A stretch of 58,633 bases of DNA from an uncultured Gammaproteobacteria bacterium (lineage in GTDB: Bacteria > Patescibacteriota > Patescibacteriia > UBA2196 > GWA2-42-15): NCBI GenBank assembly GCA_964573135.1, contig CAZNIO010000008.1, forward strand, positions 1 to 58,633. The letters run 5' to 3'. Within the stretch, counting starts at the first letter, position 1. Each line of letters starts with the position of its first letter. The notes beneath the pieces are model-generated. The model was given only the letters and a program-made list of their open reading frames with translations, was not told the DNA's origin and did no database searches. Made by a program: the position numbers and the translations under genes. Below are positions 6,098-53,863 of this stretch, one piece after another.

Positions 6098-7798
6098 TCA
6101 AAGCCCCGCCCCTTGATCTGTCTCAAATTTTCCACCGTCTTTTACATCCTTCTCTTCCCCAAACACTCCATCAACAACACGTATAACAGGCTTCTTTAGT
6201 GAAACAACATGATTCTCATATTTCAACCCCTTACCACTATAAATAATCTTTCCTTGCTCATTTTTAAAACCTGGCACACGCTCAATCTCATATACCCCCT
6301 TATCTAATCCAGCTAAATCTTCAACTCCTCCCGTAAACTCAATAAACTCAAAATCATATTTTTTAGCCTCTTCAGGCTCTAATTCCATAATATTAATATG
6401 CTCTTTGCGGGATAATTTATTAAATTCTTCATCACCCCACATTTCATTCAAATATTGATTAGCGCTATCCACCGCCTCTTTCAGCTCATCCATCTCTAAT
6501 TGAGAAACAAAACCTTTTTCTTTAAGTGCGTCACTTAACTTACTTTTCTTTCTATTACAAACGCTCACTCTATTACCCAAAAGCCCGTTGCTAAGAGAGT
6601 CCGCCCACTCTTTATTATATTCTGCCTTAAACTTCCTGCCAATATCACCAAAACCATCCATAATACTTTCAACAGACTGACTTATCTTTTCAATCTCTCG
6701 TTTGGCCTGTTCCAGATCCTCATCTCCTAATTTTGTTTCTTGTATTGTCGCTTCTCTTTCATTCTTTTTCTCTTCTGCTTTCTGTTTTGCTCTTATTTCG
6801 TTTTCATAAAGTTTATCTAATTTTGACAATTCTTCGGTTTGCACAGCTAAAGTAGGAGAAAAATCACTATTAAGCTTTGCCCCGACCGTTACCGATACTG
6901 GCCCCTCTTCAACAATTTTATGGTCCAAAAATTTGTATTTTGCGCGAATCTCTTTCTCTAAAAAATTATTTCCCAATAATTCCTTACTTTTATCATCCAA
7001 GACACCATTGAATTTATCCAGCTCAGTCTTATGTATGCTTCTCGTTTTATCACTTATCAACAACTTGTTAAGAAAATCCCTGCAATCTCGTATGGCCGCT
7101 CCAGCCGAATCATATTTATTCATACTTTCCAGCATCTCATCCATCTCCTTTCGGAAAAAAAGATTAAAATCCTTCTCTGCAAATATTTCTCTTAGTGATA
7201 TAACTGCTTCTCTCCAAATCTCTCTCGTTTTACTTTCACCCTTATTGGCCTCAAGTTTATATTCAGTGTTCACCTCTGTATCAACAAAATTATCATCAAC
7301 TTGCGTCGCCATCTCTTCACTCTTCCCACCACCTGCAATTTGTTCATTTAAATATAAAATTGCCTGCTCAAATTCCCGCTGGCTCATATTTGGAGCATTT
7401 GTTAACGCTTTATTGATCAAAGTTGAACCAACTTCATCGCTTATCTTTTCTTGACTCACATAACCTTCGTCTAACTCAATATTATGAATACTTGTTGCAT
7501 CTATAATCTGTTGCCTAAGCGCTTCAAAGTTTTCTGCCTCTTTCTTTCTATTTAAATATGAAATTACATACTCAAAGCTTTCTTGATCTGATATTTGACT
7601 GGCCATTATTTTTTGAATTAGCAATATTGCCTTGTTGGCATCCAAGCCATCGTTTGTCATATGATTTTCATCAATCTCAAATCCAGTTACTTGCGCTTTC
7701 TTTAAGATCATTGCCTTGCTCATTGCTAAATTATCTACCTTTTCTTTGTCAGGATGCTTGTCTACTTGATCCTGTCCTGGTTTATTAAATTCAGACAT
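6098..7798 (-). CDS. Hypothetical acidic, largely helical/coiled-coil protein (566 aa)
   Basis: Long uninterrupted ORF co-oriented with nrnA; no family recognised. Confidence 0.7.
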   Translation of the reverse strand: MSEFNKPGQDQVDKHPDKEKVDNLAMSKAMILKKAQVTGFEIDENHMTNDGLDANKAILLIQKIMASQISDQESFEYVISYLNRKKEAENFEALRQQIIDATSIHNIELDEGYVSQEKISDEVGSTLINKALTNAPNMSQREFEQAILYLNEQIAGGGKSEEMATQVDDNFVDTEVNTEYKLEANKGESKTREIWREAVISLREIFAEKDFNLFFRKEMDEMLESMNKYDSAGAAIRDCRDFLNKLLISDKTRSIHKTELDKFNGVLDDKSKELLGNNFLEKEIRAKYKFLDHKIVEEGPVSVTVGAKLNSDFSPTLAVQTEELSKLDKLYENEIRAKQKAEEKKNEREATIQETKLGDEDLEQAKREIEKISQSVESIMDGFGDIGRKFKAEYNKEWADSLSNGLLGNRVSVCNRKKSKLSDALKEKGFVSQLEMDELKEAVDSANQYLNEMWGDEEFNKLSRKEHINIMELEPEEAKKYDFEFIEFTGGVEDLAGLDKGVYEIERVPGFKNEQGKIIYSGKGLKYENHVVSLKKPVIRVVDGVFGEEKDVKDGGKFETDQGAGL

Positions 7799-10962: not shown

Positions 10963-12096
10963 ATGGCCTTAGACACAAATCAGCAAATCAACCAGCTCAT
11001 AGCTAAGTCAAAACAAATTCTAATTGCTTCCCCTGCTAAAAATTCGGACGACAGCCTTTGCTCTTGTCTTGCTCTTTTTAAATTATTTGAAAAAATAAAT
11101 AAACCAGCTGATTTAATCACTGAAAATCCCCAAAAAAATAGGCTAGCCTTTTTGCCCCAAAGCGATAGCATTAAATCAAATATTGACTCTCTACAAAAAT
11201 TAACAATTTCTCTAGATATTAAGGATAATAAGATTAATGATTTTAGTTATGACATTACAGATGATAAGCTCAATATTTTCCTCACCCCTCAAAAAACAAA
11301 TCTAACCAAGGATGACATTTCAATTCAGCAAAGTAGCTTTAAGTATGATTTAATTATTACCATTGGTTCACAAGACTTAGAGTCTCTTGGAGGTTTGTAT
11401 CAAAAAAATACAGACTTTTTTTATTCCACTCCTATTATAAACATAGATACATCTCCAAGCAACGAACATTTTGGCCAAATCAATCTAATCGACTTGAGCG
11501 CCTCATCAACCACAGAAATTATCTTTGACCTTATCAATTCAATAAATCCAAAATTCATCGATGAAGATGTAGCTACTCATCTTCTGGCTGGTACCATTAT
11601 TAAAACAAAAAGTTTTAAAGACCCACGCACCACTCCCCGGTCACTGTCCCTCGCCGCTGATCTTATACGACTCGGGGGCAAAAGAGATTTAATTGTCAAT
11701 CATCTATATGGCAATAAAAAACTATCAACCCTAAATCTCTGGGGAAGAGTCCTGGCTCGTCTAAAACAAGATACTCTCTACAAAATGGCCTGGTCAATGA
11801 TCAGTCAAACTGATTTTGAAAGAGCCGGTGCCACTCAAAATGACCTTCAAGGTATTACCGAAGAAATTCTTCTTAATTCTCCCCAAATCGAAACTATCCT
11901 TATACTCTATGAAACTAAATCAGGTCAAATAGCCGCTGAACTGCATACTTCAAAAAACTACGATGCCCTTGAACTTACTCGCGCTTTTGGACCTTTGGGT
12001 AATACATCTAGAGCTGATTTCTACCTTGAAACCGACAAGCTCTTTGAAGCTGAGGAAATGACTGTCAATCAAATAAGAAGTAGGATAAAAATCTAG
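10963..12096 (+). CDS. DHH-fold phosphoesterase-like protein with degenerate catalytic motifs
   Basis: DHH layout recognisable (ILIASP..SDDSLCS, PIINID, NEHFGQINL, SSTTEIIFDL, VATHLLAG), but DHH reads DTS, the GxxxDT motif reads GTIIKT and there is no GGGH. Confidence 0.7.
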   Translation: MALDTNQQINQLIAKSKQILIASPAKNSDDSLCSCLALFKLFEKINKPADLITENPQKNRLAFLPQSDSIKSNIDSLQKLTISLDIKDNKINDFSYDITDDKLNIFLTPQKTNLTKDDISIQQSSFKYDLIITIGSQDLESLGGLYQKNTDFFYSTPIINIDTSPSNEHFGQINLIDLSASSTTEIIFDLINSINPKFIDEDVATHLLAGTIIKTKSFKDPRTTPRSLSLAADLIRLGGKRDLIVNHLYGNKKLSTLNLWGRVLARLKQDTLYKMAWSMISQTDFERAGATQNDLQGITEEILLNSPQIETILILYETKSGQIAAELHTSKNYDALELTRAFGPLGNTSRADFYLETDKLFEAEEMTVNQIRSRIKI

Positions 12097-12246: not shown

Positions 12247-12921
12247 ATGGCACGCGCAAAAGACCGAGAAAAGGCTCTGTCACTTAGAAAACAGGGCATG
12301 AGTTATAGCCAAATTAAAAAAATAATTGGGGTAGGCAAAGGCACTTTAAGCAACTGGCTTAGAGATCACCCCCTCTCAAAGGAAAGAATCAGGGAGCTCG
12401 TTTACTGTAACGAACAAAGAATAGAGCGCTGCAGGGAAACAAAAAGAAAGAAAAAAGAACAACGATTGCTCAACTATTACAATGAAGAGAAAAAAAATAT
12501 ATTTCCTCTTACAAAACGAGAATTCTATTTGGCTGGACTTGTTCTATACTGGGGAGAAGGGACTAAAAGACACTTAGCTACCCTGGCTGTTACAAATACA
12601 GATCCTGCTGTAATCAAATTCTTTATTATATGGACCATCAAAGCACTGAAATTCCCCAAAGAAAAAATTAAAATGCGCTTACATCTATATACCGACATGG
12701 ATATCAAAAAAGAAACACTCTACTGGTCAAAAACACTGAATATACCCCCAAAACAATTCACCAAGCCATATATCAAGCAAAGTTCAAGTGAAAGAATAAA
12801 TTATAAAGGCAGATTTGGTCATGGAACTTGTGTAGCCCAAATAGGGAATGCGAGGACAACTGAAAAAATTTTAATGGCCCTAAAAGCCATTGCAGACAAA
12901 TATAACGAGGAGCGCCTGTAG
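12247..12921 (+). CDS. N-terminal helix-turn-helix plus single-motif LAGLIDADG-like domain protein
   Basis: HTH-like ALSLRKQGMSYSQIKKIIGVGKGTLSNWL; LAGLIDADG-like FYLAGLVLYWGEG, then LAVTNTDPAVIKFF and YWSKTLNIP; stop codon lies inside the tRNA-Ile. Confidence 0.65.
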   Translation: MARAKDREKALSLRKQGMSYSQIKKIIGVGKGTLSNWLRDHPLSKERIRELVYCNEQRIERCRETKRKKKEQRLLNYYNEEKKNIFPLTKREFYLAGLVLYWGEGTKRHLATLAVTNTDPAVIKFFIIWTIKALKFPKEKIKMRLHLYTDMDIKKETLYWSKTLNIPPKQFTKPYIKQSSSERINYKGRFGHGTCVAQIGNARTTEKILMALKAIADKYNEERL

Positions 12922-12987
12922 CTCAGGGGTTAGAGCACCTGACTTATAATCAGGTTGTCGATGGTTCAAATCCATCCAGGCGCACCA
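12912..12987 (+). tRNA. tRNA-Ile (anticodon UAU), CCA encoded
   Basis: Acceptor GCGCCTG/CAGGCGC, D stem GCTC/GAGC, anticodon arm CCTGA-CT TAT AA-TCAGG, T arm GATGG-TTCAAAT-CCATC, discriminator A plus CCA; 76 nt. Confidence 0.92.
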
Positions 12988-13089: not shown

Positions 13090-13166
13090 GGGCGGTTAGC
13101 TCAGTTGGTTAGAGCGCGTCGTTGACATCGACGAGGTCATTGGTTCAACTCCAATATCGCCCACCA
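13090..13166 (+). tRNA. tRNA-Val (anticodon GAC), CCA encoded
   Basis: GGGCGGT/ATCGCCC acceptor, CGTCG-TT GAC AT-CGACG, ATTGG-TTCAACT-CCAAT, ACCA; 77 nt. Confidence 0.95.
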
Positions 13167-24372: not shown

Positions 24373-25794
24373 TTAATCTAAACTTTCAACATTCACCCCA
24401 AAACTCCAATCAACCTCGTTATAACTATGTAACAACTTATTGATGTACCCCTTCAGCTTATCATATTCGTCCTGGGTCTTAGATTCAAACTTTATTGTTA
24501 AATATGGCCCATTTTGTGAATATCGTATAACAAACATTGCGGTTTCCATATCAAGACGTACTCCATCTCCTGCCCTCTCGTCGTCAATCACTTCTGCGTC
24601 CTTCCAATCTCCTTTTAATTTTTTTGCAATTTTACTCATCAGCGCCACCTTCTTATCATCAGGACAACCCACCTTAATTTCAGGACTTGAAATATATTTT
24701 GGCAAGTCGGCCACTGCTTCACTCAAAGTCTGATTAATTCGTGAGAGATAGTCAAGTAAACGTAATGTGGCATAACAACCGTCATCATGGTTATAAAAAT
24801 CAGCAGAAAAGAAAAAGTGACCTGATAATTCACCAATAAAAGGTGCACCCACCTCTTGATTTTTCTTTTTCAAGAAACCATGACCCGTTCTCCATATAAA
24901 TGGCTCTCCACCATACTTCTCTACTGTTTCTTCAACTACTTTGGAACAAAGGGTGTTATACATAATGTTCTCGCCAGGATGACCGTTTAATACATCGATA
25001 GCAAACAAGGCCAACAAAACGTCATTCCAAATAATATTTCCTTTTTCATCAACCACACCAATTCGATCACCATCGCTATCATAAGACAACCCAATATCAG
25101 CTTTAGCCTCTAAAACCTCCCTTGATAATCGCTCAGCTAAAACCAACTCTGTCGGATCTGGTATACCCAACGGAAAGTTGCCATCCAAATCACAATTTTT
25201 TTCAACAACTTCGCAGCCAACACGGCGCAACAAATCAGGTATAATCACCCCAGGGGTTGACTTGGCTGGATCGATTACCACCTTTAACCCCTTTTTGATA
25301 TTAAATCTTTTAATCAAATCATCAAAATAAATATCATTAACGTCCTCCTCTTCACTCTTGCCGGGCTTATCAGCTACAACATAATCTTGCTCTTCAACCA
25401 TATCTACTAATTTTTCCAACTGATCACCGATCATTGCCTCTGAATAATCTTCTGATATCTTAAATCCGTTATATTCTGATGGATTATGTGAAGCCGTAAT
25501 CATAACTGTTCCTACTGTCTTAAAATGATACTGACACCAATAAATATGACCCACTAAACTAAGACCCAAATCTATTACGTCAAGACCAGTAGATAAAATG
25601 CCCTTAACAAAACAGTTTTTAAATTCTTCGCTGGTTAATCTTGCGTCTCGACCAACTATAATCTTATCCATGCCTTTGCGAGACATATATGTCCCATAGG
25701 CTTTACCAAAGTGCTCCATAATCTCAGGCGTTAAATCCTCGCCAGCTACACCCCGAATATCATAACCACGTATTATATGACGATTAATTTTCAT
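24373..25794 (-). CDS. Phosphomannomutase/phosphoglucomutase
   Basis: RGYDIRG, TASHNP, YDSDGDRIG, RTGH, GELSGH, RYSQNGP. Confidence 0.93.
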   Translation of the reverse strand: MKINRHIIRGYDIRGVAGEDLTPEIMEHFGKAYGTYMSRKGMDKIIVGRDARLTSEEFKNCFVKGILSTGLDVIDLGLSLVGHIYWCQYHFKTVGTVMITASHNPSEYNGFKISEDYSEAMIGDQLEKLVDMVEEQDYVVADKPGKSEEEDVNDIYFDDLIKRFNIKKGLKVVIDPAKSTPGVIIPDLLRRVGCEVVEKNCDLDGNFPLGIPDPTELVLAERLSREVLEAKADIGLSYDSDGDRIGVVDEKGNIIWNDVLLALFAIDVLNGHPGENIMYNTLCSKVVEETVEKYGGEPFIWRTGHGFLKKKNQEVGAPFIGELSGHFFFSADFYNHDDGCYATLRLLDYLSRINQTLSEAVADLPKYISSPEIKVGCPDDKKVALMSKIAKKLKGDWKDAEVIDDERAGDGVRLDMETAMFVIRYSQNGPYLTIKFESKTQDEYDKLKGYINKLLHSYNEVDWSFGVNVESLD

Positions 25795-25797
25795 AAC

Positions 25798-27189
25798 TCA
25801 TTTACTTAATTTATAAAAAATATCTTTGCCTTGTTTTATCATTTTTTTAACAATTTTTTTATTATTACCATTGGCTATTATCCGAAAAAGTCCTGGTTCG
25901 GTTTGTGATTCCCTAAAAAACAACCAATTGTATCTATCAAAAAGTATTTTAAACCCGCCTGTCTTACCGGGCACTCTTCTTACATTATACCCCGTATTCT
26001 GAAAATATTTCAATATTTTACCGCCAACCTTATCTCCGCCCTTCTCTTCTATTCTCTCCTCAAAATATTGAGGATAATTATCTAAAATCTCAGATATAGA
26101 TGTCCCTCTTCTTGCAAGTAACGCTAAAATAGCCACAACTGATAATAATCCATCTCTACATTTACTCGGAAGCATTATCAATCCTCCGCAACTCCCCTCT
26201 CCGCCAACCACGCTACCCATTTTTTCCATTTTTACTACAACATTTGTCTCCCCAACATCAACTTCAAAAACTCGAGCTCCATAATACTTAGCAATTTTAT
26301 GTACCAAATGTGAAGTCGGTAAATTAACAACTACTTTTTGTCCCCTCTTTTTTGATGACAAAACACTATCGACTCCAAGTGCCAACATCTCATTGCCAGA
26401 CATAACAGCACCGCGCGGTAAAATAATCTCAACTCGATCAGCATCTCCATCAAGCCCAAAACCAAAATCAGCTTTCTTTGCATCTACTAGCTTACTTAAA
26501 TATTTCAAAGTTTTACTATTTGGAATAACCTTTCGACCATAGACCCCTTCTTTCATATTCACCCCAATTATATCTACATTTAATTTCTTAAATAATTTTT
26601 GAAGCAGGCCAATAACCGGCCCGCCATTTGGATCAGCTATTAATTTAAATTTTTTATCTCTTATTTGTTTAACAGATTTTTTACCAATAATTTTTAAAAC
26701 CTCATTTATATATCTCTTTTCCAAATCTTTCTCTTTTCTAATTAATTTTCCTTTTTTACCCAAAAATCCACTATCAAGTGGCTTGCTAACCTTTCTTATA
26801 ATATTCTCGCTGTCTTTTACATATAAAATAGCTCCATTTTCCCTCAATAGCTTCCACCCATTGTATTCCGGCTCATTATGTGATGCGGTTATAACCACCC
26901 CTCCTTGCGCCTTATACTCACGAACTCCTAACTCAACCACCGGCGTACTGGCCACTCCCACATCAATCACCTCAAAACCAAAATCCAAAAAAACTTCAAT
27001 AAAAACTTTTTGTAAACTCTTAGTTGACTTGCGAGTATCTCCACCAACTACTACTCTAATTTTTTTAAATTTATCAATTAAAAACAAAGAATACACCCGC
27101 GCATACTTTTCCGCCAAACCCTCATCAATCCCGCGACCATAAACTCCACGAATACCAGAAAATGATTCAATTAAATTATTTTTATTCAT
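25798..27189 (-). CDS. Second alpha-D-phosphohexomutase (GlmM/PMM-like)
   Basis: FSGIRG, TASHNE, LDGDADR, VGETNV, GGEGSCGG, RESQTEP. Confidence 0.88.
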   Translation of the reverse strand: MNKNNLIESFSGIRGVYGRGIDEGLAEKYARVYSLFLIDKFKKIRVVVGGDTRKSTKSLQKVFIEVFLDFGFEVIDVGVASTPVVELGVREYKAQGGVVITASHNEPEYNGWKLLRENGAILYVKDSENIIRKVSKPLDSGFLGKKGKLIRKEKDLEKRYINEVLKIIGKKSVKQIRDKKFKLIADPNGGPVIGLLQKLFKKLNVDIIGVNMKEGVYGRKVIPNSKTLKYLSKLVDAKKADFGFGLDGDADRVEIILPRGAVMSGNEMLALGVDSVLSSKKRGQKVVVNLPTSHLVHKIAKYYGARVFEVDVGETNVVVKMEKMGSVVGGEGSCGGLIMLPSKCRDGLLSVVAILALLARRGTSISEILDNYPQYFEERIEEKGGDKVGGKILKYFQNTGYNVRRVPGKTGGFKILFDRYNWLFFRESQTEPGLFRIIANGNNKKIVKKMIKQGKDIFYKLSK

Positions 27190-27701
27190 ATAATATCCTT
27201 ACTATTTAATATCTGTAATATTTTTTCTGTCATCTCCTTCTTATTCTTCTGATAAATCTTCTCAGCTAACTCACTTGCCTCGCCATACGACACCCATTTA
27301 TAATCATCAAATTCACTCTCGCCAATATCCAAATCTGTATTCTCAACTTTAGACATCATAAAAAAATATTTTTTACCCCTCATATAGAATTCCTCTCCTT
27401 CATCTGTCTTTAGTTCTCTTGAATTCTGTTTTTTAGAAGAAAAAATTATCTCATCCTCTCCAATAATCTCTAAATCCTTAGCTCCTTCCATAAAACTACT
27501 TCCTAACTCCTCTCTCATCTCTCGCTTAAACGCTTCTTCTAAAGTCTCGCCATTATCCACTCCCCCTTGCGGCATTTGCCACAAATCATGCTTTCTCTTG
27601 TAAACCATCAAAACTTTATTACCCCTCACAAAAACACCTACAACTTGTGGTCGCAAACCATTTTTTCGTATTTCATCAATTTGCTTTAAGCTTAACTTCA
27701 T
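27186..27701 (-). CDS. NUDIX hydrolase, RppH/Ap4A-hydrolase-like
   Basis: WQMPQGGVDNGETLEEAFKREMREELG Nudix box; 4-nt overlaps with both neighbours. Confidence 0.88.
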   Translation of the reverse strand: MKLSLKQIDEIRKNGLRPQVVGVFVRGNKVLMVYKRKHDLWQMPQGGVDNGETLEEAFKREMREELGSSFMEGAKDLEIIGEDEIIFSSKKQNSRELKTDEGEEFYMRGKKYFFMMSKVENTDLDIGESEFDDYKWVSYGEASELAEKIYQKNKKEMTEKILQILNSKDII

Positions 27702-28399
27702 ATTTTTTTAACCACTGACAATATATTTCTCCCATTCCACCAATGACATTTTTTCTCCCCACATGAATAATAGTTTTCAACTATCTCAAATCCTGCCTGT
27801 TTAAATAATTTTTTCAACTCTCCACAAGTAAACACCCTATAATACAACTCTCCCTTCCTCTGCTTATCTCCCGACTGCCACACAGTCATTAAGTCTCGAA
27901 AACTCTCTCTCGTAATCTCCCTATTCCATACGCTCTTTTTCTGCCCCTTTTGCCATAAATTCCAGTTTGTCATTATTAAATGCCCACCAGGTTTTAATAC
28001 TTTAAAAATATTTACTAATGCTTTCAATCTCAACTCATGACTTGGAATATGATTAAATACAGCGAACATAAATACTTTATCAAATTTATCCATTTCCAAT
28101 TTATCAAGCCCCAGCATATCACCCACTAAAAAATTAGCTTTTTTATTATTCTTCTTGGCTTGATCAATCAAGCTTTGCGAATTATCTAATCCGAAATAAT
28201 AAACTCTAGGTAAAATCTCCAAAAATCTTCCATTGCCACACCCCACATCAAGTACTCTATCATTCTCCTTTACATATTGCTTGACTAGGGTCCTCATTTC
28301 TGGCCATATCCTATTTCGTGTATCAGAAAAATCCTCTGCAATTAAATCATAAGTTTTCCTATTTATCTCCAATATCTTTTGTGCCCGTGTTGCATCCAT
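27698..28399 (-). CDS. Class I SAM-dependent methyltransferase, Trm9/ALKBH8-like (putative tRNA cm5U34 methyltransferase)
   Basis: YDLIAEDFSDTRNRIWP, VLDVGCGNGR, AVFNHIPSHELR, LKPGG..MTNW, YYRVFTCGEL follow the motif order I recall for yeast Trm9. Confidence 0.75.
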   Translation of the reverse strand: MDATRAQKILEINRKTYDLIAEDFSDTRNRIWPEMRTLVKQYVKENDRVLDVGCGNGRFLEILPRVYYFGLDNSQSLIDQAKKNNKKANFLVGDMLGLDKLEMDKFDKVFMFAVFNHIPSHELRLKALVNIFKVLKPGGHLIMTNWNLWQKGQKKSVWNREITRESFRDLMTVWQSGDKQRKGELYYRVFTCGELKKLFKQAGFEIVENYYSCGEKKCHWWNGRNILSVVKKI

Positions 28400-28408
28400 A
28401 TATCTTTA

Positions 28409-28451
28409 AGATTAGCAGGAGCTTTGAAAAATTACAAATTTGGGATATAAT
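28409..28451. promoter_or_regulatory. Overlapping divergent promoters for elp3 and the Trm9-like operon
   Basis: + strand TTGAAA, 16 nt, TATAAT (28446-51); - strand TTGTAA (28437-32), 17 nt, TG-n-TAATCT (28414-09); each -10 box is 9 nt from its ATG. Confidence 0.55.
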
Positions 28452-28460
28452 AAGGAAACT

Positions 28461-30005
28461 ATGGATATTGCACAAAAAATCATCAAATATCTCTTAAAAA
28501 ATCCTCCCCAAACAGAGGCCGATATTCTACGTGCTAAAAGAAAATTCTGCAAAGAATCTAAAACCAAAAATGTACCCCCTAATTCAGATCTACTCAAAAT
28601 CTATCACACAAAAAAAACAAAAAGTATTAAATTAGAAAACCTCTTGCGCAAGCGCGGTATACGCACTCTTTCTGGTATTGCACCCATTGCCGTTTTAACT
28701 AAACCCTATCCTTGCCCCGGCAACTGCGCCTATTGCCCCAAAGAAAAGGACATGCCCACCAGCTATCTTTCTAACGAGCCAGCCGTTATGCGCGCTATTC
28801 TCTGTAAATTCAATCCATACAAACAAGTCCAGATGCGCTTAAAAGCCCTGCAAAGCAATGGTCATAATATAGATAAACTTGAACTCATTGTCATGGGTGG
28901 CACGTGGTCATATTTAAAAGAAAAATATCAAACCTGGTATATCAAAGAATGCTTTCGTGCAGCCAATGACTTTCCTAAAATCATTAAATCTTCTAAAACA
29001 AATTTAGCCTACGAGCAAAAAAGAAACGAGAAAACAAAAAATAGGATAGTTGGACTAACCCTAGAAACCCGACCTGACTACATAAATGAAGAAGAATTAG
29101 AAAAAATGAGAAACTTTGGCTGCACTAGAATTGAAATTGGTATCCAGCATATTGATGATAAGATATTAAAACTAAACAAGCGTGGACATACAGTAGAGCA
29201 GACAATAAAAGCCACCAGCCTTATGCGTAACTACGGTTTTAAAATAACTTATCACATTATGCCTAATCTTCCAGGATCTACTCCATCTAAAGACTTGGCA
29301 ATGTGCAAAAAAATATTCACAAACCCCAATTTTCAACCAGATCAAATCAAGCTCTATCCTTGCGTAGTCGCTAAGGGCTCGCTCCTCTATCGCTGGTGGA
29401 AACAAGGCAAATGGAAAAGCTATTCCACTAAAACCCTGATTAATTTACTTATTAATATAAAATCAATAACACCTCCTTGGGTAAGAATTATCAGGGTCAT
29501 CAGAGACATCCCAGAAGAATCAATTATTGACGGAAATAAAATAACTAATTTAAGACAAACCGTTCAATCTATAATGAGAGAAAGAGAAATTGTCTGCCAA
29601 TGTATTAGATGCCGTGAAGCCGGCCATCAAAACCATGCGGAAAAATACAAACCATATCCACAATCCCGTACATACAAAACCATCGACGGAACTGAAATAT
29701 TCTTAAGCTTTGAATCAAAAAATAAAGAGGTACTTTTTGCTTTTTGTCGTCTTTGTTTACCGAAAAATAGCAACACAGCCCTCATCCGCGAACTACACAC
29801 ATACGGCCAAATGACCGCCTTGGGTCAAAAAGGAACTGTTCAACACAGAGGCATGGGCAAAAAACTTCTGCAAACCGCCGAAAAAATAACTAAACAAAAA
29901 AAATACACCGCTCTATCAATTATCTCAGGTATTGGCGTACGTGATTACTATCGCAAACTTGGCTACCAGCTACAAAATACGTATATGCTTAAAAAGTTGA
30001 AATAA
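28461..30005 (+). CDS. elp3: Elp3 tRNA uridine(34) acetyltransferase, radical SAM plus GNAT (start moved to the ATG at 28461)
   Basis: CPGNCAYC (CxxxCxxC), MGGTW, LETRPD, RIEIGIQ, HIMPNLP, PDQIKLYP, RVIRDIP, CQCIRCRE, RELHTYG, QHRGMG, ISGIGVRDYYRKLGY. Confidence 0.93.
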   Translation: MDIAQKIIKYLLKNPPQTEADILRAKRKFCKESKTKNVPPNSDLLKIYHTKKTKSIKLENLLRKRGIRTLSGIAPIAVLTKPYPCPGNCAYCPKEKDMPTSYLSNEPAVMRAILCKFNPYKQVQMRLKALQSNGHNIDKLELIVMGGTWSYLKEKYQTWYIKECFRAANDFPKIIKSSKTNLAYEQKRNEKTKNRIVGLTLETRPDYINEEELEKMRNFGCTRIEIGIQHIDDKILKLNKRGHTVEQTIKATSLMRNYGFKITYHIMPNLPGSTPSKDLAMCKKIFTNPNFQPDQIKLYPCVVAKGSLLYRWWKQGKWKSYSTKTLINLLINIKSITPPWVRIIRVIRDIPEESIIDGNKITNLRQTVQSIMREREIVCQCIRCREAGHQNHAEKYKPYPQSRTYKTIDGTEIFLSFESKNKEVLFAFCRLCLPKNSNTALIRELHTYGQMTALGQKGTVQHRGMGKKLLQTAEKITKQKKYTALSIISGIGVRDYYRKLGYQLQNTYMLKKLK

Positions 30006-30710: not shown

Positions 30711-32018
30711 ATGAATACTCAAAAAAACCTAGAAAACCTAAAAGACAATGATCCGGAAATTTTTAATGCTATCCAAGGCGAAGAAAAAAGAGAACAACTT
30801 GGCATTGAACTCATTCCTTCTGAAAACTACACCTATCCTGAGGTCTTCGCCGCCAATGGCTCTATTTTAACCAATAAATATTCTGAAGGGTATCCAGGCA
30901 AAAGATACTATGGCGGTCAAGAATTCACAAATATTGTAGAATCCCTAGCTATCGAACGAGCCAAAAAAGTCTTCAAATGTGATCATGCCAACGTTCAACC
31001 ACTTTCCGGCTCACCGATGAACCAGGCAGTCTATTTAGCCCTCTGTAAACCAGGCGATACTATTCTTGGCATGGACCTCTCACACGGAGGTCATCTAACT
31101 CATGGCGCTCCAGTTTCCCATATGGGTAAACTTTTTAATTTTGTCAGGTATAAAACAGACCCAGATAATAAAGGAAAAATAGATTTTGATCAACTTCTAA
31201 AACTTGCTAAAAAATATAAGCCCAAAATCGTCCTCTGCGGCTATACCTCATACCCTAGGGATTATGACTATACTGACTTCAAAAAAGTAGCTGATGAAGT
31301 CGGAGCATATACTATGGCCGATATCGCCCATATTGGTGGCCTAGTCGCTGCTGGTGCAATGAGAAATCCCTTTGACTACGGTTTTGATATAGTCACTACA
31401 ACTACTCATAAAACACTGCGCGGACCACGCGCAGGCTTAGTACTTTCCAACGGTAAGGTTGGTAATCCCTTCAAGGAAGTTGAATTAACCAAAGAAAATT
31501 TACCCACCATTCTTGACAGATCAGTCTTCCCTGGACTTCAAGGAGGGCCACACATGCATACTATTGCTGCCATTGCTATAACTCTTAAAAAAGCTATGCA
31601 ACCCGATTTCAAAGAATACGCTAATCAAGTGCTTAAAAACGCCAAAGTTCTGGCTAAAACCCTCATGGATAAAGGGGCTAAGCTTGTCACAGATGGCACC
31701 GATAACCACATGCTAGTTTTAAATACACTTGCCAGCTTTAATATAAATGGCAAAGTAGCTGAAGAAATTCTTGAAACAACTGGTGTTACAGTTAATAAAC
31801 AAATCATACCAGACGATCCCAATCCACCATACAAGCCATCAGGCATTCGTTTGGGCACACCAGCCGCCACTACTCGTGGCATGCAAGAAGATGATATGCA
31901 AAAAATAGGTAGCTGGATAATCCAAGCACTCAAAAACCATCAAGACAAATCAAAACTAACAGAATTAAAAACAGAAGTCGAAAACTTCTGTAAACAATTC
32001 CCAGTCCCTGGAATATAG
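30711..32018 (+). CDS. glyA: Serine hydroxymethyltransferase
   Basis: LIPSENY, NKYSEGYPGKRYYGG, HGGHLTHG, TTTTHKTLRGPR, PGLQGGPH, SGIRLGTP. Confidence 0.98.
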   Translation: MNTQKNLENLKDNDPEIFNAIQGEEKREQLGIELIPSENYTYPEVFAANGSILTNKYSEGYPGKRYYGGQEFTNIVESLAIERAKKVFKCDHANVQPLSGSPMNQAVYLALCKPGDTILGMDLSHGGHLTHGAPVSHMGKLFNFVRYKTDPDNKGKIDFDQLLKLAKKYKPKIVLCGYTSYPRDYDYTDFKKVADEVGAYTMADIAHIGGLVAAGAMRNPFDYGFDIVTTTTHKTLRGPRAGLVLSNGKVGNPFKEVELTKENLPTILDRSVFPGLQGGPHMHTIAAIAITLKKAMQPDFKEYANQVLKNAKVLAKTLMDKGAKLVTDGTDNHMLVLNTLASFNINGKVAEEILETTGVTVNKQIIPDDPNPPYKPSGIRLGTPAATTRGMQEDDMQKIGSWIIQALKNHQDKSKLTELKTEVENFCKQFPVPGI

Positions 32019-41398: not shown

Positions 41399-42781
41399 TT
41401 AACTTAATTTTTTATACAATTTTAGATATTCCTTAGCTGAACTCTCCCAAGAAAAATCCTGCTGCATACAACCAGTCACTATACTCTGCCATTTTTTTTG
41501 ATTACCATACACCCCTAAAGTATCCTTAATAGCCTCAACCATCTCTTGCACATCATAATTCTTGAAATTAAACCCCGTTTTTCCTTTTTTAACTGTGTCC
41601 TTCAAACCCCCCGTCTCACGTACCAATGGTACGCTCCCATATTTCATAGCAATTAACTGTCCCAAACCACACGGTTCATACTTTGAGGGCATTAAAAATA
41701 TATCACTTGAAGCATAAATCTGGCTGGCCAAAGGAGCGCTAAATGTTAAATGTGCTTTAAATTTACCTCGATACTTCTTATTCATCTTACCAAAAAACTC
41801 CTCATATTTTTTCTCTCCAGTACCAAGTATAACTAATTGCAAATCCTCACTCATTAATTCATCAAAAACCTTTTCAAGTAATTCAAAACCCTTCTGCCCC
41901 ACCAATCTTGATATCATACTTATTAAAGGAATATTCTCATTTATCTCTAAACCGCTCATCTCTTGTAAATATTTTTTATTATCTACCTTCCCACTCAAAC
42001 TCTTCAAATCATATTTTTTAAAAATATTTTTATCTTTTTTGGGGTTGAATGTATTATAATCAATACCATTCACAATTCCATACAAGTCTTTTTTTCTTAT
42101 ATTGATCTCCTTCTCCATGCCTGCCCCATATTCTTTAGTCAAAATTTCTTTAGCATAAGTTGGACTAACCGTATTCACAATATTACTTTGTAAAATTGCC
42201 TCTTTCATTACATTCACTTTTCTCTCTTTACCCAATCCTGAAAAATCATCTTCTGCTAAACCAAATTTCTCCAAAGTTCCAATCTGTGCACTTCCCTTAT
42301 ATGCCAAATTATGAATTGTATACAGACTCTTAATATTTCCTTTGCTAAAAATATTAGTCATACCCGTATGCCAGTCATTGGCATGTATTACATTTGGATT
42401 CCATTCAAGTATGCTTGGTAGCTGCGCCACTAGATATGAGAATAAGACAAACCTTTCCCTGTTATTTTTATCAAAAATATCTTTAACTCCAAACCATTCC
42501 TTATTATCAATAAAATATATGGGAACTTTTGACCCTGGTAAATATGATCTTAAAATATTTATCTTAATCTTGCTACCGCCATATTCAACAACCTCATTTT
42601 TCTTAACCAATTCAACATCTTTTCTTTTCTTAATTTCCCTATAATACGGCAAAACCACCCGGATATCCGCCCCCAGTTTCATTAATGCTTTAGGCAAACT
42701 ACCCGCCACATCCCCTAATCCCCCCATCTTAAAAAATGGGGCACATTCATATGCGGTAAAGAGTACTTTAATTTTTTTCAT
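41399..42781 (-). CDS. glgA: Glycogen/starch synthase (GT5), copy 2
   Basis: ECAPFFKMGGLGDV, HANDWH, TIHNLAY, NTVSPTYA, SRLVGQKG, PSKYEPCGL. Confidence 0.95.
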   Translation of the reverse strand: MKKIKVLFTAYECAPFFKMGGLGDVAGSLPKALMKLGADIRVVLPYYREIKKRKDVELVKKNEVVEYGGSKIKINILRSYLPGSKVPIYFIDNKEWFGVKDIFDKNNRERFVLFSYLVAQLPSILEWNPNVIHANDWHTGMTNIFSKGNIKSLYTIHNLAYKGSAQIGTLEKFGLAEDDFSGLGKERKVNVMKEAILQSNIVNTVSPTYAKEILTKEYGAGMEKEINIRKKDLYGIVNGIDYNTFNPKKDKNIFKKYDLKSLSGKVDNKKYLQEMSGLEINENIPLISMISRLVGQKGFELLEKVFDELMSEDLQLVILGTGEKKYEEFFGKMNKKYRGKFKAHLTFSAPLASQIYASSDIFLMPSKYEPCGLGQLIAMKYGSVPLVRETGGLKDTVKKGKTGFNFKNYDVQEMVEAIKDTLGVYGNQKKWQSIVTGCMQQDFSWESSAKEYLKLYKKLS

Positions 42782-46788: not shown

Positions 46789-48024
46789 TTAAAATGGTGA
46801 AATTTTCTTTAAAAATTTTAGATGGGTATCCTTATATTTTGTCCAATGCCTTGTCCATATTAATCCATGAATTTCCAAAAAACTCTTCTCCGCCTTTATT
46901 TTCATCTTATAATCAACACCCATCAAAGCTCGCACACTACGCAAAAGCTCAAGTGCCCCCTTCTCCACTTCTTCCGGGCTCCAGGCGGGATCATCAAACA
47001 TTTTAAAGTCTTTACCCGACGCCCACCAAAAAGTACAACTGGCTAAGCCCTTCTCCATATGCAGACGTGAAGCAAAGTGGTTTGGGTCTTTTAAATTATC
47101 ATAATTTAATTTTATAGCTAAGTTAGCCAATTGCCAAAGCTTTTCATGCATCTTGTTTTTTGGATGCTTCCATAAACTATATGCAATTTTATTCTGCAAC
47201 TCCCCTGGGGTTGATTCCCAAGAACAATCTACTAAATCAACCTTTTCTTCTTTTCTCTTCTCTTTAAAAAACTCCGAGATAGTGGCCGTCTTCAATTCCT
47301 TATTCTTCAAAACTTGGTTAAAAATTTCTTCTCTATCCAAGTACTTATGCCCATACAACTCTCCGTCAGTCGCCGTAACCACCACTTCTGGTCGCTTTCC
47401 TTGTTTCAATATCCTTCTAATTTCTTTAGGCACAAAAGTCTTTGATATTTTTCTATTTCGAAAAATTACATTCAGCCCAATATTTTTTATACTATATTTC
47501 TTAGTGTAATTTAGATGATGATTATTAATTTTACCGCCCAAAGCTATTTCATCTAATATAATCCATTCAAAACCCGCTCTTTTAATAGCCCGTGCCACAT
47601 CCTGTGAATAGGCCATCTCTGGCAGATAAAAACCCTTTGGTTTGTAAGCTGATCCAAAATAGTGGCGGTTAATATCATTGTTAACCGCAATTTGCCTCTC
47701 CACTTCTTTAGTTGGCAATAACGGCAACAGCGGGTGAAAGGCCGCTGTGCCCACTAATTCCACTTGACCCGCCTTAACCAAAGAGGAAATGTCCTTGATT
47801 AATTTTGTAAAACCAACTTGATTTAAATACTCAGTTAAGCATCCAGTAATATTTAAAGTAATCTTATGCTTCTTGTTTTGCTTTAAAACTCGAACAATAT
47901 TTGAATAAGATCCTTTGGTGATTTTAACCAGAAGCTCTTTATCAAGGGTTGGTGGTTGATATATGTGCAAAAAATTTATCCAAAGCATATCTTCGGTTTG
48001 TTTATTATTTAATTTATTTACCAT
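46789..48024 (-). CDS. Glycoside hydrolase family 57 (alpha-glucan active)
   Basis: FLHIYQP, VELVGTAAFHPLLPLL, GFYLPEMAY (nucleophile Glu), TDGELYGH (acid/base Asp), CSW. Confidence 0.88.
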   Translation of the reverse strand: MVNKLNNKQTEDMLWINFLHIYQPPTLDKELLVKITKGSYSNIVRVLKQNKKHKITLNITGCLTEYLNQVGFTKLIKDISSLVKAGQVELVGTAAFHPLLPLLPTKEVERQIAVNNDINRHYFGSAYKPKGFYLPEMAYSQDVARAIKRAGFEWIILDEIALGGKINNHHLNYTKKYSIKNIGLNVIFRNRKISKTFVPKEIRRILKQGKRPEVVVTATDGELYGHKYLDREEIFNQVLKNKELKTATISEFFKEKRKEEKVDLVDCSWESTPGELQNKIAYSLWKHPKNKMHEKLWQLANLAIKLNYDNLKDPNHFASRLHMEKGLASCTFWWASGKDFKMFDDPAWSPEEVEKGALELLRSVRALMGVDYKMKIKAEKSFLEIHGLIWTRHWTKYKDTHLKFLKKISPF

Positions 48025-49504
48025 TGCCGTTCTTCCTTTCCTTCCTGAACCTGACTGCTTTTTTAAACAATTTTACATAAAGCTTCGCTGGCAAATTCCA
48101 CGAAAAAGAAATCTGCATTACACGACCGACTAGTTTGTTCCAAGTCTTTTTATCCTTATAATATTCAAGTGCTCGCACAATAGCTCCATAAAGTGACATT
48201 GAGCTATATGTTCTAAACGTAAAACCATTCCCTTGCTTATTATTAAAATCAAAATTCTCCACAGTATCTTTTAAACCTCCAATCGACCGCACAATGGGAA
48301 TACAGCCATAGCGTAAAGCCTTCATCTGATTAATACCACACGGCTCTGTCGTTGACGGCAGTAAAAACAGGTCTCCCCCAGCATACAAGCTTGTCTCATA
48401 TTTGCTATTAAATTTAGTCCACACCAATTTCTTGGGATACTTCTTGGATAGCTTCTTCAACTGTGAAATATATTCTTTGTCGCCATCTCCCATAATAATC
48501 AGCTGTACATCAAAGCGTAATAAAATTTCTAAAGTCTTCAAAATTAAATCAAATCCCTTCTGGTGTGTTATACGTGAAGCCATCACAATTAAGGGCACAT
48601 CATGATTCTGCGTTAAGCCATACTTACGCTGAATAAATAACTTATTAGCCTCTCTATGCCTAGTCTGCTTATATGTATAATTCTTTTTGAGTCCTGGGTC
48701 TGTTTGTGGATTATATTCCTTATGATCGATACCATTCACAATACCAAACAATCTATCTGCTCTATTTTTAAGCAAAATATTTAAACCTTGCCCCTTGCCT
48801 TTCTTCAAAATTTCTTCAGCATAGGTTTCAGAAACTGTGTTAACTGCGTCTGCGTCAATAATCGCCCGCTTAACAAAATTGACTCGCTCAATCCTAGAAC
48901 TATCGAGTAAGGGCAATTTGGACTTCCCGCCATCTCTTTTTTCAGCAGGTATCTCCCACCACGAATGGCCCAACTGAAAAATTAAATTATGAATTGTAAA
49001 AACACACGCTGCTCTTTTTAACACAGAGGAATCTTTAAAATCACGCCGCAAAAAATATGGTATAAGACCAGCCTGCCAATCATGGCACTGGATTACGTCT
49101 GCCTTGAATCTTAAAATAGTTAAAAGTTTTAATGCCGCCAAATCAAACAATATAAACCTAGCATTCTCGTGACTTGAACCGTAAAGATCTTTTCTCCTTG
49201 AAAAATATTTATCACTTTCCACAAAGTATACAGACACCCCCTTAGTCAGCTCTCCTTTCCAATAATTAACCATCGTACTATTTTCTTTATCAATCCCAAT
49301 CTTAACCTTTTCTTTGACCAACTTTAAATTATACTTCTTCTTGTCAATCAATTTGCCATACAAGGGAGTAATACATATTACTTTATGCCCCAATCTATTT
49401 AAAGCGCGGGGCAAACTACGCGCCACATCAGCCAAACCACCCGTTTTAGAAAACGGGTCAATTTCTGATGAAACTGATACTATATTTAAATATTTACTAG
49501 CCAT
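48014..49504 (-). CDS. glgA: Glycogen/starch synthase (GT5), copy 1 (start moved to 49504)
   Basis: SEIDPFSKTGGLADV, CHDWQ, TIHNL, NTVSETYA, SRITHQKG, PSTTEPCG. Confidence 0.95.
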   Translation of the reverse strand: MASKYLNIVSVSSEIDPFSKTGGLADVARSLPRALNRLGHKVICITPLYGKLIDKKKYNLKLVKEKVKIGIDKENSTMVNYWKGELTKGVSVYFVESDKYFSRRKDLYGSSHENARFILFDLAALKLLTILRFKADVIQCHDWQAGLIPYFLRRDFKDSSVLKRAACVFTIHNLIFQLGHSWWEIPAEKRDGGKSKLPLLDSSRIERVNFVKRAIIDADAVNTVSETYAEEILKKGKGQGLNILLKNRADRLFGIVNGIDHKEYNPQTDPGLKKNYTYKQTRHREANKLFIQRKYGLTQNHDVPLIVMASRITHQKGFDLILKTLEILLRFDVQLIIMGDGDKEYISQLKKLSKKYPKKLVWTKFNSKYETSLYAGGDLFLLPSTTEPCGINQMKALRYGCIPIVRSIGGLKDTVENFDFNNKQGNGFTFRTYSSMSLYGAIVRALEYYKDKKTWNKLVGRVMQISFSWNLPAKLYVKLFKKAVRFRKERKNGNGK

Positions 49505-49508
49505 AAAA

Positions 49509-49988
49509 TTAATATTTACAATTTTCGGTCTGTGCACAGGTTATCGCCACGGCCACAGCATCCGCCGCATCATCTTGTTTTATAATCTCCTTCAAACCCA
49601 AAATAACTTTGACCATCTCCTGAACTTGCTTCTTGTCAGCCCTGCCATATGAAGTAACGGCTTGTTTCACCTGCAAGGGCGTAAATTCTCTTATAGGCAA
49701 CTTATACTGCATACCCGTTGCTAAAATCACCCCCCGAGCTTCTCCCACCTTAAGAGCGGTTTTCACATTTTTACAAAAAAACAATTCTTCAACAGAAAGA
49801 ATATCTGGCTTGTGCTTTTCTATTATCTTGCTCAACTCATCACCAATCTTTGCCAATCTCTCTGCATGTAGCACACCCACCTTGGTTGTGATACAACCAT
49901 AATCTACTAGCTGTAACTTTCTCTGCTTATTTTCAATGACACCATAGCCGACAATTGCCACACCAGGGTCTATCCCTAATATTTTCAT
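49509..49988 (-). CDS. ruvC: Crossover junction endodeoxyribonuclease RuvC
   Basis: ILGIDPG, VEELFF, GEARGV, VKQAVTSYGRADKKQV, DDAADA. Confidence 0.96.
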   Translation of the reverse strand: MKILGIDPGVAIVGYGVIENKQRKLQLVDYGCITTKVGVLHAERLAKIGDELSKIIEKHKPDILSVEELFFCKNVKTALKVGEARGVILATGMQYKLPIREFTPLQVKQAVTSYGRADKKQVQEMVKVILGLKEIIKQDDAADAVAVAITCAQTENCKY

Positions 49989-53778: not shown

Positions 53779-53863
53779 TGGTGCCCAGGGCGGGACTCGA
53801 ACCCGCACTCCCGAAGGAACATGATTTTAAGTCATGCGTGTAAACCAATTCCACCACCTGGGC
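53779..53863 (-). tRNA. tRNA-Leu (anticodon UAA), CCA encoded
   Basis: Minus strand GCCCAGG/CCTGGGC acceptor, CATGA-CT TAA AA-TCATG, long variable arm, GCGGG-TTCGAGT-CCCGC, ACCA. Confidence 0.94.

Follow-up and report, generated by a model that had tools for sequence, protein, structure and literature searches.

The window, by which we mean the whole 58,633-nucleotide stretch of contig CAZNIO010000008.1 (assembly GCA_964573135.1) and to whose ~58 kb our analysis of this genome was limited, contains a head-to-head gene pair that encodes the radical S-adenosylmethionine (SAM) enzyme Elp3 and a methyltransferase resembling Trm9. The methyltransferase open reading frame (ORF) begins with ATG. The Elp3 ORF is counted from an ATG as well, and an in-frame TTG lies at 28440. 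An earlier, sequence-only reading of this DNA had described the two genes as divergent across 61 bp, and the coordinates give exactly that distance. The features of the locus are as follows.

27698..28399, minus strand: Trm9-like class I SAM methyltransferase, 233 amino acids (top PDB match YlTrm9 5cm2_Z, hhalign to ScTrm9, AlphaFold2 model)
28400..28460, no strand: divergent intergenic region, 61 bp, from the ORF coordinates
28424..28451, plus strand: promoter-like site TTGAAA-16-TATAAT 5' of elp3, matching 11 of 12 consensus positions (consensus match only)
28461..30005, plus strand: elp3, radical-SAM/GNAT tRNA U34 carboxymethylase, 514 amino acids with a basic N-terminal extension (TIGR01211, Pfam and PDB matches)

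We propose, with somewhat better than even confidence, that these genes constitute a conserved bacterial cassette for modifying the wobble uridine (U34) of tRNA in the archaeal/eukaryotic manner, in which 5-carboxymethyluridine (cm5U34) would be converted to 5-methoxycarbonylmethyluridine (mcm5U34). The sequence-only reading had called such a pathway eukaryote-type. Archaeal/eukaryote-type is the better term, given the clustering of the genes in Sulfolobus and the known mcm5U of Haloferax.

The description of a complete Elp3 with radical-SAM, zinc-binding and GNAT elements is borne out by the NCBIfam model TIGR01211, whose match spans residues 8-513 of 514 with 572.3 bits (cutoff 350), and by the presence of all three expected motifs:

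28713..28736, plus strand: radical-SAM cluster motif CPGNCAYC (Cx3Cx2C), residues 85-92, read directly from the sequence
29595..29612, plus strand: three-cysteine zinc motif CQCIRC, residues 379-384, read directly and aligning with CRCIRC of MinElp3
29841..29858, plus strand: acetyl-CoA motif QHRGMG of the KAT domain, residues 461-466, read directly from the sequence

Pfam recognizes Radical_SAM (66 bits) and Radical_SAM_C (79 bits), places ELP3_N just below its cutoff (26 bits compared to 27), and gives weak GNAT matches at residues 448-503, each below cutoff. The closest solved structures are MinElp3 from Methanocaldococcus infernus (6ia8, E 4e-127) and DmcElp3 from Dehalococcoides mccartyi (5L7J, E 3e-124), and the alignment reaches the C-terminal ends of both. 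The cluster loop of MinElp3, CPHGKCIFC, has one more residue between its first two cysteines than the loop in the window, which appears as a one-residue alignment gap. Nineteen of the first 75 residues of the window Elp3 are lysine or arginine and make up the basic N-terminal extension; Lin et al. found that the basic N-terminal region of archaeal Elp3 is important for tRNA binding, and the three zinc-site cysteines are a conserved feature of Elp3 from bacteria and archaea (PMC6367351). Elp3 is present in "numerous bacteria" (PMC13315578), and the archaeal and bacterial proteins need no other Elongator subunit to act on tRNA (PMC6367351; PMC13315578).

For the methyltransferase, Trm9 appears to be the closest characterized relative. 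A phmmer search of 177,635 PDB sequences ranked Trm9 of Yarrowia lipolytica (YlTrm9, 5cm2_Z) first (E 1e-15, 60.8 bits, residues 25-221), followed by a runner-up at E 5.8e-10 and 42 bits. A profile built from 34 homologs of the methyltransferase (A1) again placed YlTrm9 at the top, at full length and with 93.7 bits; its runner-up, PH0226, reached 82.4 bits in an alignment confined to the Rossmann core. The AlphaFold2 model of the protein (predicted local distance difference test score 90.3) likewise retrieved 5CM2_Z first in Foldseek, with a target-normalized template modeling score of 0.84. When the A1 profile was aligned by hhalign to yeast Trm9 (ScTrm9; NP_013698.1, identity verified), the match had a probability of 99.7% and an E value of 1e-26 over 208 columns, and BLASTP of the window protein against ScTrm9 gave 34% identity over 153 amino acids (E 5e-25). 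The reverse search was made in a restricted database of 3,286 ORF segments from 92 sources, namely the window and 91 related loci (the latter numbered with an L below). With ScTrm9 as phmmer query, 90 segments from 90 of the 92 sources matched at 36-84 bits, all of them the Elp3-linked methyltransferase, and the next-best match scored 9.7 bits. The closest homologs of the window protein are from Kuenenbacteria and other Patescibacteria. At E <= 1e-30, ~1,929 representative clusters at 50% identity were recovered, the best 150 of which score 245-310 bits and are mostly full-length; four of the homologue clusters listed (P0036, P0044, P0048 and P0096) carry the IMG name TRM9. The sequence-only reading had named grouping with generic Methyltransf_11/25 enzymes as a finding that would count against it. 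In these searches the protein did not simply fall among such enzymes: Trm9 is the best solved relative by sequence, profile and fold, the alignment to ScTrm9 extends from end to end, and catalytic residues beyond the SAM core are kept. PDB entry 6F5Z, considered as a possible Haloferax Trm9 for comparison, was discarded because its Foldseek description is Hvo_0019.

The residue-level comparison is based on an alignment of Trm9 from yeast and Yarrowia with 117 members of the family. Létoquart et al. reported that alanine mutants of ScTrm9 at R29, D72, H116, W145, W168, R241, Y243 and N271 lose all or most activity, and proposed that R29 and H116 form a dyad that positions the cm5U carboxylate (PMC4678810). 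Seven of these eight residues are kept in the window protein, N271 only probably, and R241 is the exception. All eight, R241 included, are the majority state of the family. The equivalent positions and their conservation are listed here.

ScTrm9 R29, window R28: 99% of the family
ScTrm9 D72, window D72, acidic ligand of the SAM ribose: 100% (117/117)
ScTrm9 H116, window H117, catalytic: 74%
ScTrm9 W145, window W146, forming with W168 the tryptophan pair that stacks on the uridine and its neighbor: 100% (117/117)
ScTrm9 W168, window W174: 95%
ScTrm9 Y243, window Y187, lid strand: Y in 78%, F in 8%
ScTrm9 Y18, window Y17: 98%
ScTrm9 F25, window F24: 99%

The Trm9 motifs that the sequence-only reading had listed are all present, including LKPGG at residues 135-139 and W174 in addition to those in the following list, where their positions on the minus strand are given together with those of two further elements near the C terminus.

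28301..28351, minus strand: N-terminal helix motif YDLIAEDFSDTRNRIWP, residues 17-33, with Y17, F24 and R28 (alignment to ScTrm9)
28226..28252, minus strand: SAM-binding motif I LDVGCGNGR, residues 50-58
28040..28057, minus strand: FNHIPS, residues 115-120, with H117 equivalent to ScTrm9 H116 and N116 in place of H115
27950..27970, minus strand: TNWNLWQ, residues 144-150, with W146 equivalent to ScTrm9 W145 and Q150 to Q149
27827..27847, minus strand: lid strand LYYRVFT, residues 185-191, with L185 in place of ScTrm9 R241 and Y187 equivalent to Y243
27731..27748, minus strand: subclade-specific insertion CHWWNG, covarying with the change of R241 to L
27704..27727, minus strand: C-terminal strand NILSVVKK, with N225 probably equivalent to N271 of ScTrm9 (NWWVVAQK), from motif and predicted secondary structure

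As judged from this alignment, the family as a whole appears to bear the full catalytic signature of Trm9. The window protein is a member of a derived subclade in which one important residue is missing. Because the R241 position is not conserved, we call the window protein Trm9-like rather than a strict Trm9 ortholog.

The association between the two genes extends well beyond the window. We surveyed one genome per GTDB species for loci that encode the methyltransferase and located Elp3 by tblastn with the window Elp3. The 80 loci obtained are nearly all from Patescibacteria of many named lineages, with one Pacearchaeota bin among them, and they divide as follows.

57/80 loci: Elp3 immediately adjacent and divergent
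3/80 loci: Elp3 divergent but more distant
6/80 loci: Elp3 within 10 kb in another arrangement, including L012
14/80 loci: Elp3 not within reach, four of them without upstream sequence

Elp3 is thus found less than 10 kb from the methyltransferase in 66 of the 80 loci. In the Gracilibacteria locus L012, Elp3 and then the methyltransferase are co-directional and operon-like. The association also holds from the opposite direction, as the methyltransferase was divergently adjacent in seven of the eight assessable loci among nine metagenome loci seeded with the window Elp3. In an Atribacterota genome (Humimicrobiaceae) the pair is again divergent, with 33 bp between the two genes. Lack of linkage to elp3 elsewhere had been named as grounds for abandoning the earlier proposal; linkage was found instead, also outside the candidate phyla radiation (CPR), and as such supports a putative action of the methyltransferase on the Elp3 product. 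Clustering of the neighboring genes revealed no third gene conserved across the family after shadow ORFs in alternative frames were discounted. For example, an HD gene flanks Elp3 only in L020 among the 80 loci, and also in the Elp3-seeded L083. One locus, L033 (DAOPTN010000030.1), has the Elp3 and methyltransferase pair in a bin assigned to Pacearchaeota (DPANN); the cassette may have passed between CPR and DPANN, or the locus may be mis-binned.

The intergenic region between the genes is short in other genomes as well. The estimated start-to-start gap in 57 related divergent loci is mostly below 50 bp, with a median of ~14 bp and several values of ~0. With start codons so close in many genomes, the promoters must sit within the coding sequence of the partner gene. 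The overlapping promoters reported for the window by the sequence-only reading were confirmed in part: one strong plus-strand match lies in the gap, but on the minus strand a consensus scan of 28400..28460 found nothing that reached 9 of 12 positions. Promoter-like matches in the AT-rich region are barely enriched, with 19 observed compared to 13.3 expected.

The pathway that these observations suggest would begin with Elp3 which, by analogy with its orthologs, would act alone to place a carboxymethyl group on C5 of U34 in some tRNAs, using its [4Fe-4S]/SAM radical domain and a KAT domain that binds acetyl-CoA. The methyltransferase would then bind SAM and position the carboxylate of cm5U with R28 and H117, which correspond to R29 and H116 in ScTrm9. 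Methyl transfer to this carboxylate would yield the methyl ester mcm5U34, as expected from homology, catalytic residues and gene linkage. The very short intergenic region that they share may keep the genes together, and they are probably co-regulated.

The likely substrates are U34-containing tRNAs of split codon boxes, such as Leu-UAA in the window and, elsewhere in the genome, species for Lys, Glu, Gln, Arg and Gly. A search of the window for tRNA genes found four; U34 is present in just two of these, Leu(UAA) and Ile(UAU). Three of the four are given here.

53779..53863, minus strand: tRNA-Leu(UAA), probably the one plausible U34 substrate among the tRNAs of the window
12912..12987, plus strand: tRNA-Ile(UAU)
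13090..13166: tRNA-Val(GAC), neighbor of tRNA-Ile(UAU)

In both bacteria and yeast, Leu-UAA bears wobble modifications of the 5-substituted (xm5U) type. The sequence-only reading had suggested that the pathway might tune decoding by both U34 tRNAs of the window. Leu-UAA is a plausible substrate, but Ile-UAU is unlikely to be one because an Elp3-type xm5U on the UAU anticodon would misread AUG (Met). We dropped tRNA-Ile(UAU) as a special Elp3 target; in published work, tRNA-Ile(UAU) modified with 5-cyanomethyluridine (cnm5U) bound AUA > AUG > AUU. Bacteria usually decode AUA with tRNA-Ile2(CAU) and the lysidine made by TilS, and to our knowledge a UAU-anticodon tRNA-Ile has been reported in few bacteria only, such as Mycoplasma mobile. 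Two other CPR loci (L042, 15610..15762; L054, 16659..16811) share the Ile(UAU)-Val(GAC) tandem, so it may be a lineage trait.

Several observations weigh against the proposed pathway, among them the lack of a detectable Trm112 gene, altered residues in the window protein, the presence of a glycosyltransferase beside the methyltransferase in one lineage, and loci at which Elp3 is out of reach. They bear on three alternatives. The one that survives best holds that the pathway is the same but has three genes, with the methyltransferase dependent on a zinc-knuckle activator of the Trm112 type whose gene is located in another part of the genome. We regard the need for such a partner as a substantial, if minority, possibility. 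Without Trm112, yeast Trm9 is insoluble and inactive (PMC4678810), Haloferax Trm9 requires Trm112 in vivo (PMC6144793), and Trm112 homologs are common in bacteria (PMC5372719). Additionally, the beta-3 zipper positions of the window protein (L91, V92 and F106) remain hydrophobic, and our search of this genome covered 58 kb. However, a crude, low-sensitivity search that combined a zinc-knuckle/IP.L regular expression, tblastn with a consensus and with the YcaR sequence of E. coli, and inspection of small ORFs detected no Trm112-like ORF in the window or in ~1.3 Mb of sequence flanking the 91 related loci, in line with the sequence-only reading, which had seen none in the window. The 19 small intergenic ORFs of the window include, by eye, apparent bL32, SecG and bL19, and nothing that resembles Trm112. 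Nor was a Trm112 fusion present in the six over-long proteins scanned from the 150 best representatives. Two hydrophobic-core contact positions also argue against a partner of this type, as they are charged or polar in ~80% of the family: at the position of YlTrm9 V59, 73% of members have K or R (R48 in the window protein), and at that of F78, ~80% have N, D, E, K or Q (Y67 in the window protein). The mutation L91R disrupts the yeast Trm9-Trm112 complex (PMC4678810), and K, Q or R occupies the equivalent position in 28% of family members. Given these sequence features, the methyltransferase may work without Trm112.

A second alternative is that the methyltransferase is linked to Elp3 but that the chemistry of the window subclade has diverged, so that it uses another Elp3-derived intermediate or yields a product other than mcm5U. 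We consider this unlikely. The window protein has L185 where ScTrm9 has R241, a residue whose replacement by alanine leaves ~1% of wild-type activity (PMC4678810). In 68% of the family R stands here, and in 32% L or I, the latter members being the subclade of the window protein. The hairpin insertion xHWWNG is found in 31 of the 33 L-bearing members, and the change of R241 to L covaries also with that of H115 to N, seen as N116 in the window protein. The assignment of N225 to N271 is itself ambiguous, as MAFFT instead put the HWW insertion opposite NWW; N is found at the N225 position in 107 of the 117 family members. The changes in R241, H115 and the HWW hairpin fall in the substrate pocket, archaea can make further derivatives from cm5U, cnm5U among them, and published work did not detect cm5U in Haloferax trm9 mutants. 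In addition, a glycosyltransferase gene of the WecG/TagA/CpsF family lies immediately 3' of the methyltransferase in 9 of the 92 sources, an arrangement of a Gracilibacteria/Peregrinibacteria-type lineage:

L012 2739..3479, L038 10756..11475, L047, L048, L086 and L088-L091: WecG-type neighbor

In L012 the order on one strand is Elp3, methyltransferase, WecG, and the window has no such arrangement. Two protein clusters, P0216 and P0244, are fusions of the methyltransferase with WecG/TagA. The WecG association is the sole observation that a pure tRNA-modification model leaves unaccounted for. Despite these differences, the R28/H117 dyad, Y17, W146, W174, Y187 and N225 are all retained, the L-bearing subclade is as tightly paired with Elp3 as the R-bearing majority, and no alternative xm5U reaction is known for this fold.

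The third alternative, a generic methyltransferase of small molecules or the cell envelope whose adjacency to elp3 reflects inherited gene order rather than shared function, draws on the purely generic Pfam and NCBIfam assignments, on the WecG neighbors and fusions, and on the 14 loci at which no Elp3 is in reach (10 of the 76 that have at least 2 kb upstream of the methyltransferase), but is highly improbable, because the other neighbors vary but the pairing persists in numerous Patescibacteria lineages, in Atribacterota and in a DPANN bin, adjacency is retained in L012 even though the orientation differs, Trm9-specific catalytic residues beyond the Rossmann core are conserved, and at each locus ScTrm9 matches this methyltransferase gene alone. 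The best NCBIfam matches of the window protein (DVU_1556, CpaM and UbiE-like) are all below cutoff; Pfam and NCBIfam contain no Trm9 model, so these scans could not decide Trm9 membership. Two margins are narrow, in that YlTrm9 exceeds PH0226 by just ~11 bits in the profile search, and METTL6 and other class I enzymes trail it by a small margin in Foldseek.

Other genes near the pair provide context for the locus. The stop codon of the methyltransferase overlaps, as ATGA, the start of a NUDIX hydrolase gene (27186..27701, minus strand) with weak RppH-like matches. The NUDIX gene itself overlaps the first of a pair of ORFs that resemble phosphoglucomutase/phosphomannomutase and contain a TASHN motif (25798..27189 and 24373..25794, minus strand). 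The methyltransferase, NUDIX and mutase genes together (24373..28399, minus strand) look like one operon. A NUDIX homolog beside the Elp3 and methyltransferase pair was found in none of the 80 loci. On the other side, 25 loci, the window among them (30711..32018, plus strand), have a serine hydroxymethyltransferase gene (GlyA-like by clustering with the window ORF) 3' of Elp3 and in the same orientation, after which a member of a conserved family of ~285 amino acids often comes. The position of the GlyA-like gene next to Elp3 could reflect lineage synteny or a link to one-carbon metabolism and SAM supply. A tRNA-Arg(CCG) gene lies directly 3' of the methyltransferase in at least 12 of 60 loci (L017, L022, L029, L030, L031, L033, L034, L037, L042, L053, L056 and L058), at a distance of ~30-100 bp and up to ~470 bp in L053, and L049 and L057 have tRNA-Arg(UCG) instead. 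Since Elp3 cannot modify a tRNA with C34, the tRNA-Arg(CCG) neighbor may be plain synteny. Further genes of the window point to a small bacterial genome, among them those for IF-2, RNase J, RelA/SpoT and two glycogen synthase (GlgA) paralogs. The GlgA genes are less than 7 kb apart (41399..42781 and 48014..49537, both minus strand), and both exceed the TIGR02095 cutoff. A 566-amino-acid ORF (6098..7798, minus strand) and a 377-amino-acid ORF (10963..12096, plus strand) had no NCBIfam match at E <= 1e-10.

Bacterial Elp3 is already known from the DmcElp3 structures, as is the Elp3-Trm9 route in Eukarya and Archaea. A 2017 review stated that bacterial homologs of Trm112-dependent methyltransferases were not detectable (PMC5372719), and our search of the literature on bacterial Trm9, Patescibacteria Elp3 and CPR tRNA modification found no published description of a bacterial Trm9 or of the Elp3 and methyltransferase pair. 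What appears to be new is the same pathway logic in bacteria, encoded in a compact divergent cassette, with an altered lid residue in one subclade and possibly without Trm112. This novelty is tempered by its basis in sequence comparison and by automated KEGG Orthology annotation, which already names some members TRM9. A more ambitious version of the proposal is that Patescibacteria and others such as Atribacterota possess a self-sufficient module of Elp3 and a Trm112-independent Trm9-like enzyme that makes mcm5U34, replaces MnmEG/MnmC and has been exchanged with DPANN or other archaea. We advance this version only tentatively and think it rather doubtful. If it were true, wobble chemistry of the archaeal/eukaryotic kind would be central to translation in a very large bacterial radiation. 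The mcm5U-type modification and the Elp3-Trm9 route are usually regarded as eukaryotic and archaeal, and the methyltransferase family is large (~1,900 clusters at 50% identity) and locked to elp3 across CPR. If mcm5U is made, the pathway would reach the third domain of life, and the structurally studied bacterial Elp3 proteins would gain a downstream partner. A small Trm9 that possibly does without Trm112 would suit mechanistic and structural work. With two genes, the wobble chemistry of CPR would become testable, and this bears on gene exchange between CPR and DPANN.

Among known systems, E. coli CmoM, likewise a class I methyltransferase, turns a carboxyl on the U34 side chain into its methyl ester (cmo5U to mcmo5U). 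It is unlike the window protein in belonging to a different family and a different substrate pathway (CmoA/CmoB); CmoM was not among the 25 best of the 40 NCBIfam matches of the window methyltransferase, and CmoB matches were weak and below threshold. The textbook bacterial route, MnmE-MnmG followed by MnmC, uses a GTPase, flavin adenine dinucleotide, methylene-tetrahydrofolate and glycine chemistry to make cmnm5U and mnm5U. It resembles the proposed pathway in producing xm5U34 on tRNAs that read split-box NNA/NNG codons, and differs in its unrelated enzymes and chemistry. MnmE and MnmG were not among the 10 largest ORFs of the window, an observation that says little about the genome. DmcElp3 is, like the window Elp3, a bacterial stand-alone protein with the same domains and zinc site, but it lacks the basic N-terminal region that the window Elp3 has (PMC6367351), and the literature searched describes no partner methyltransferase for it.

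Comparison with eukaryotic Trm9/ALKBH8 (5CM2) shows a shared class I SAM fold, a two-stranded lid after beta-5 (strands 169-175 and 182-188 in the AlphaFold2 model), the N-terminal helix Y..IA..FS.TR...WP, and equivalents of R29, D72, H116, W145, W168, Y243 and, probably, N271. The predicted place in the pathway is also the same, with the methyltransferase acting in the step after Elp3, as gene linkage suggests here. Unlike the eukaryotic enzyme, the window protein is bacterial, has only 233 amino acids and no counterpart of the yeast insertion, and contains L185 for R241, N116 for H115 and an additional HWWNG hairpin ahead of the final strand. Moreover, the two Trm112-contact positions are polar across the bacterial family, no Trm112 gene was found nearby, and the bacterial gene is physically paired with elp3. 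In archaea, Haloferax volcanii Trm9-Trm112 makes mcm5U and, as noted by Grosjean, the genes for Elp3 and Trm9 cluster in Sulfolobus (PMC6144793). Haloferax Trm9 differs in its dependence on Trm112 in vivo. The window Elp3 has the basic N-terminal extension and three-cysteine zinc site of the archaeal type and, in so far as archaeal Trm9 was compared by published description, both systems combine a stand-alone Elp3 with a Trm9-type methyltransferase in clustered genes.

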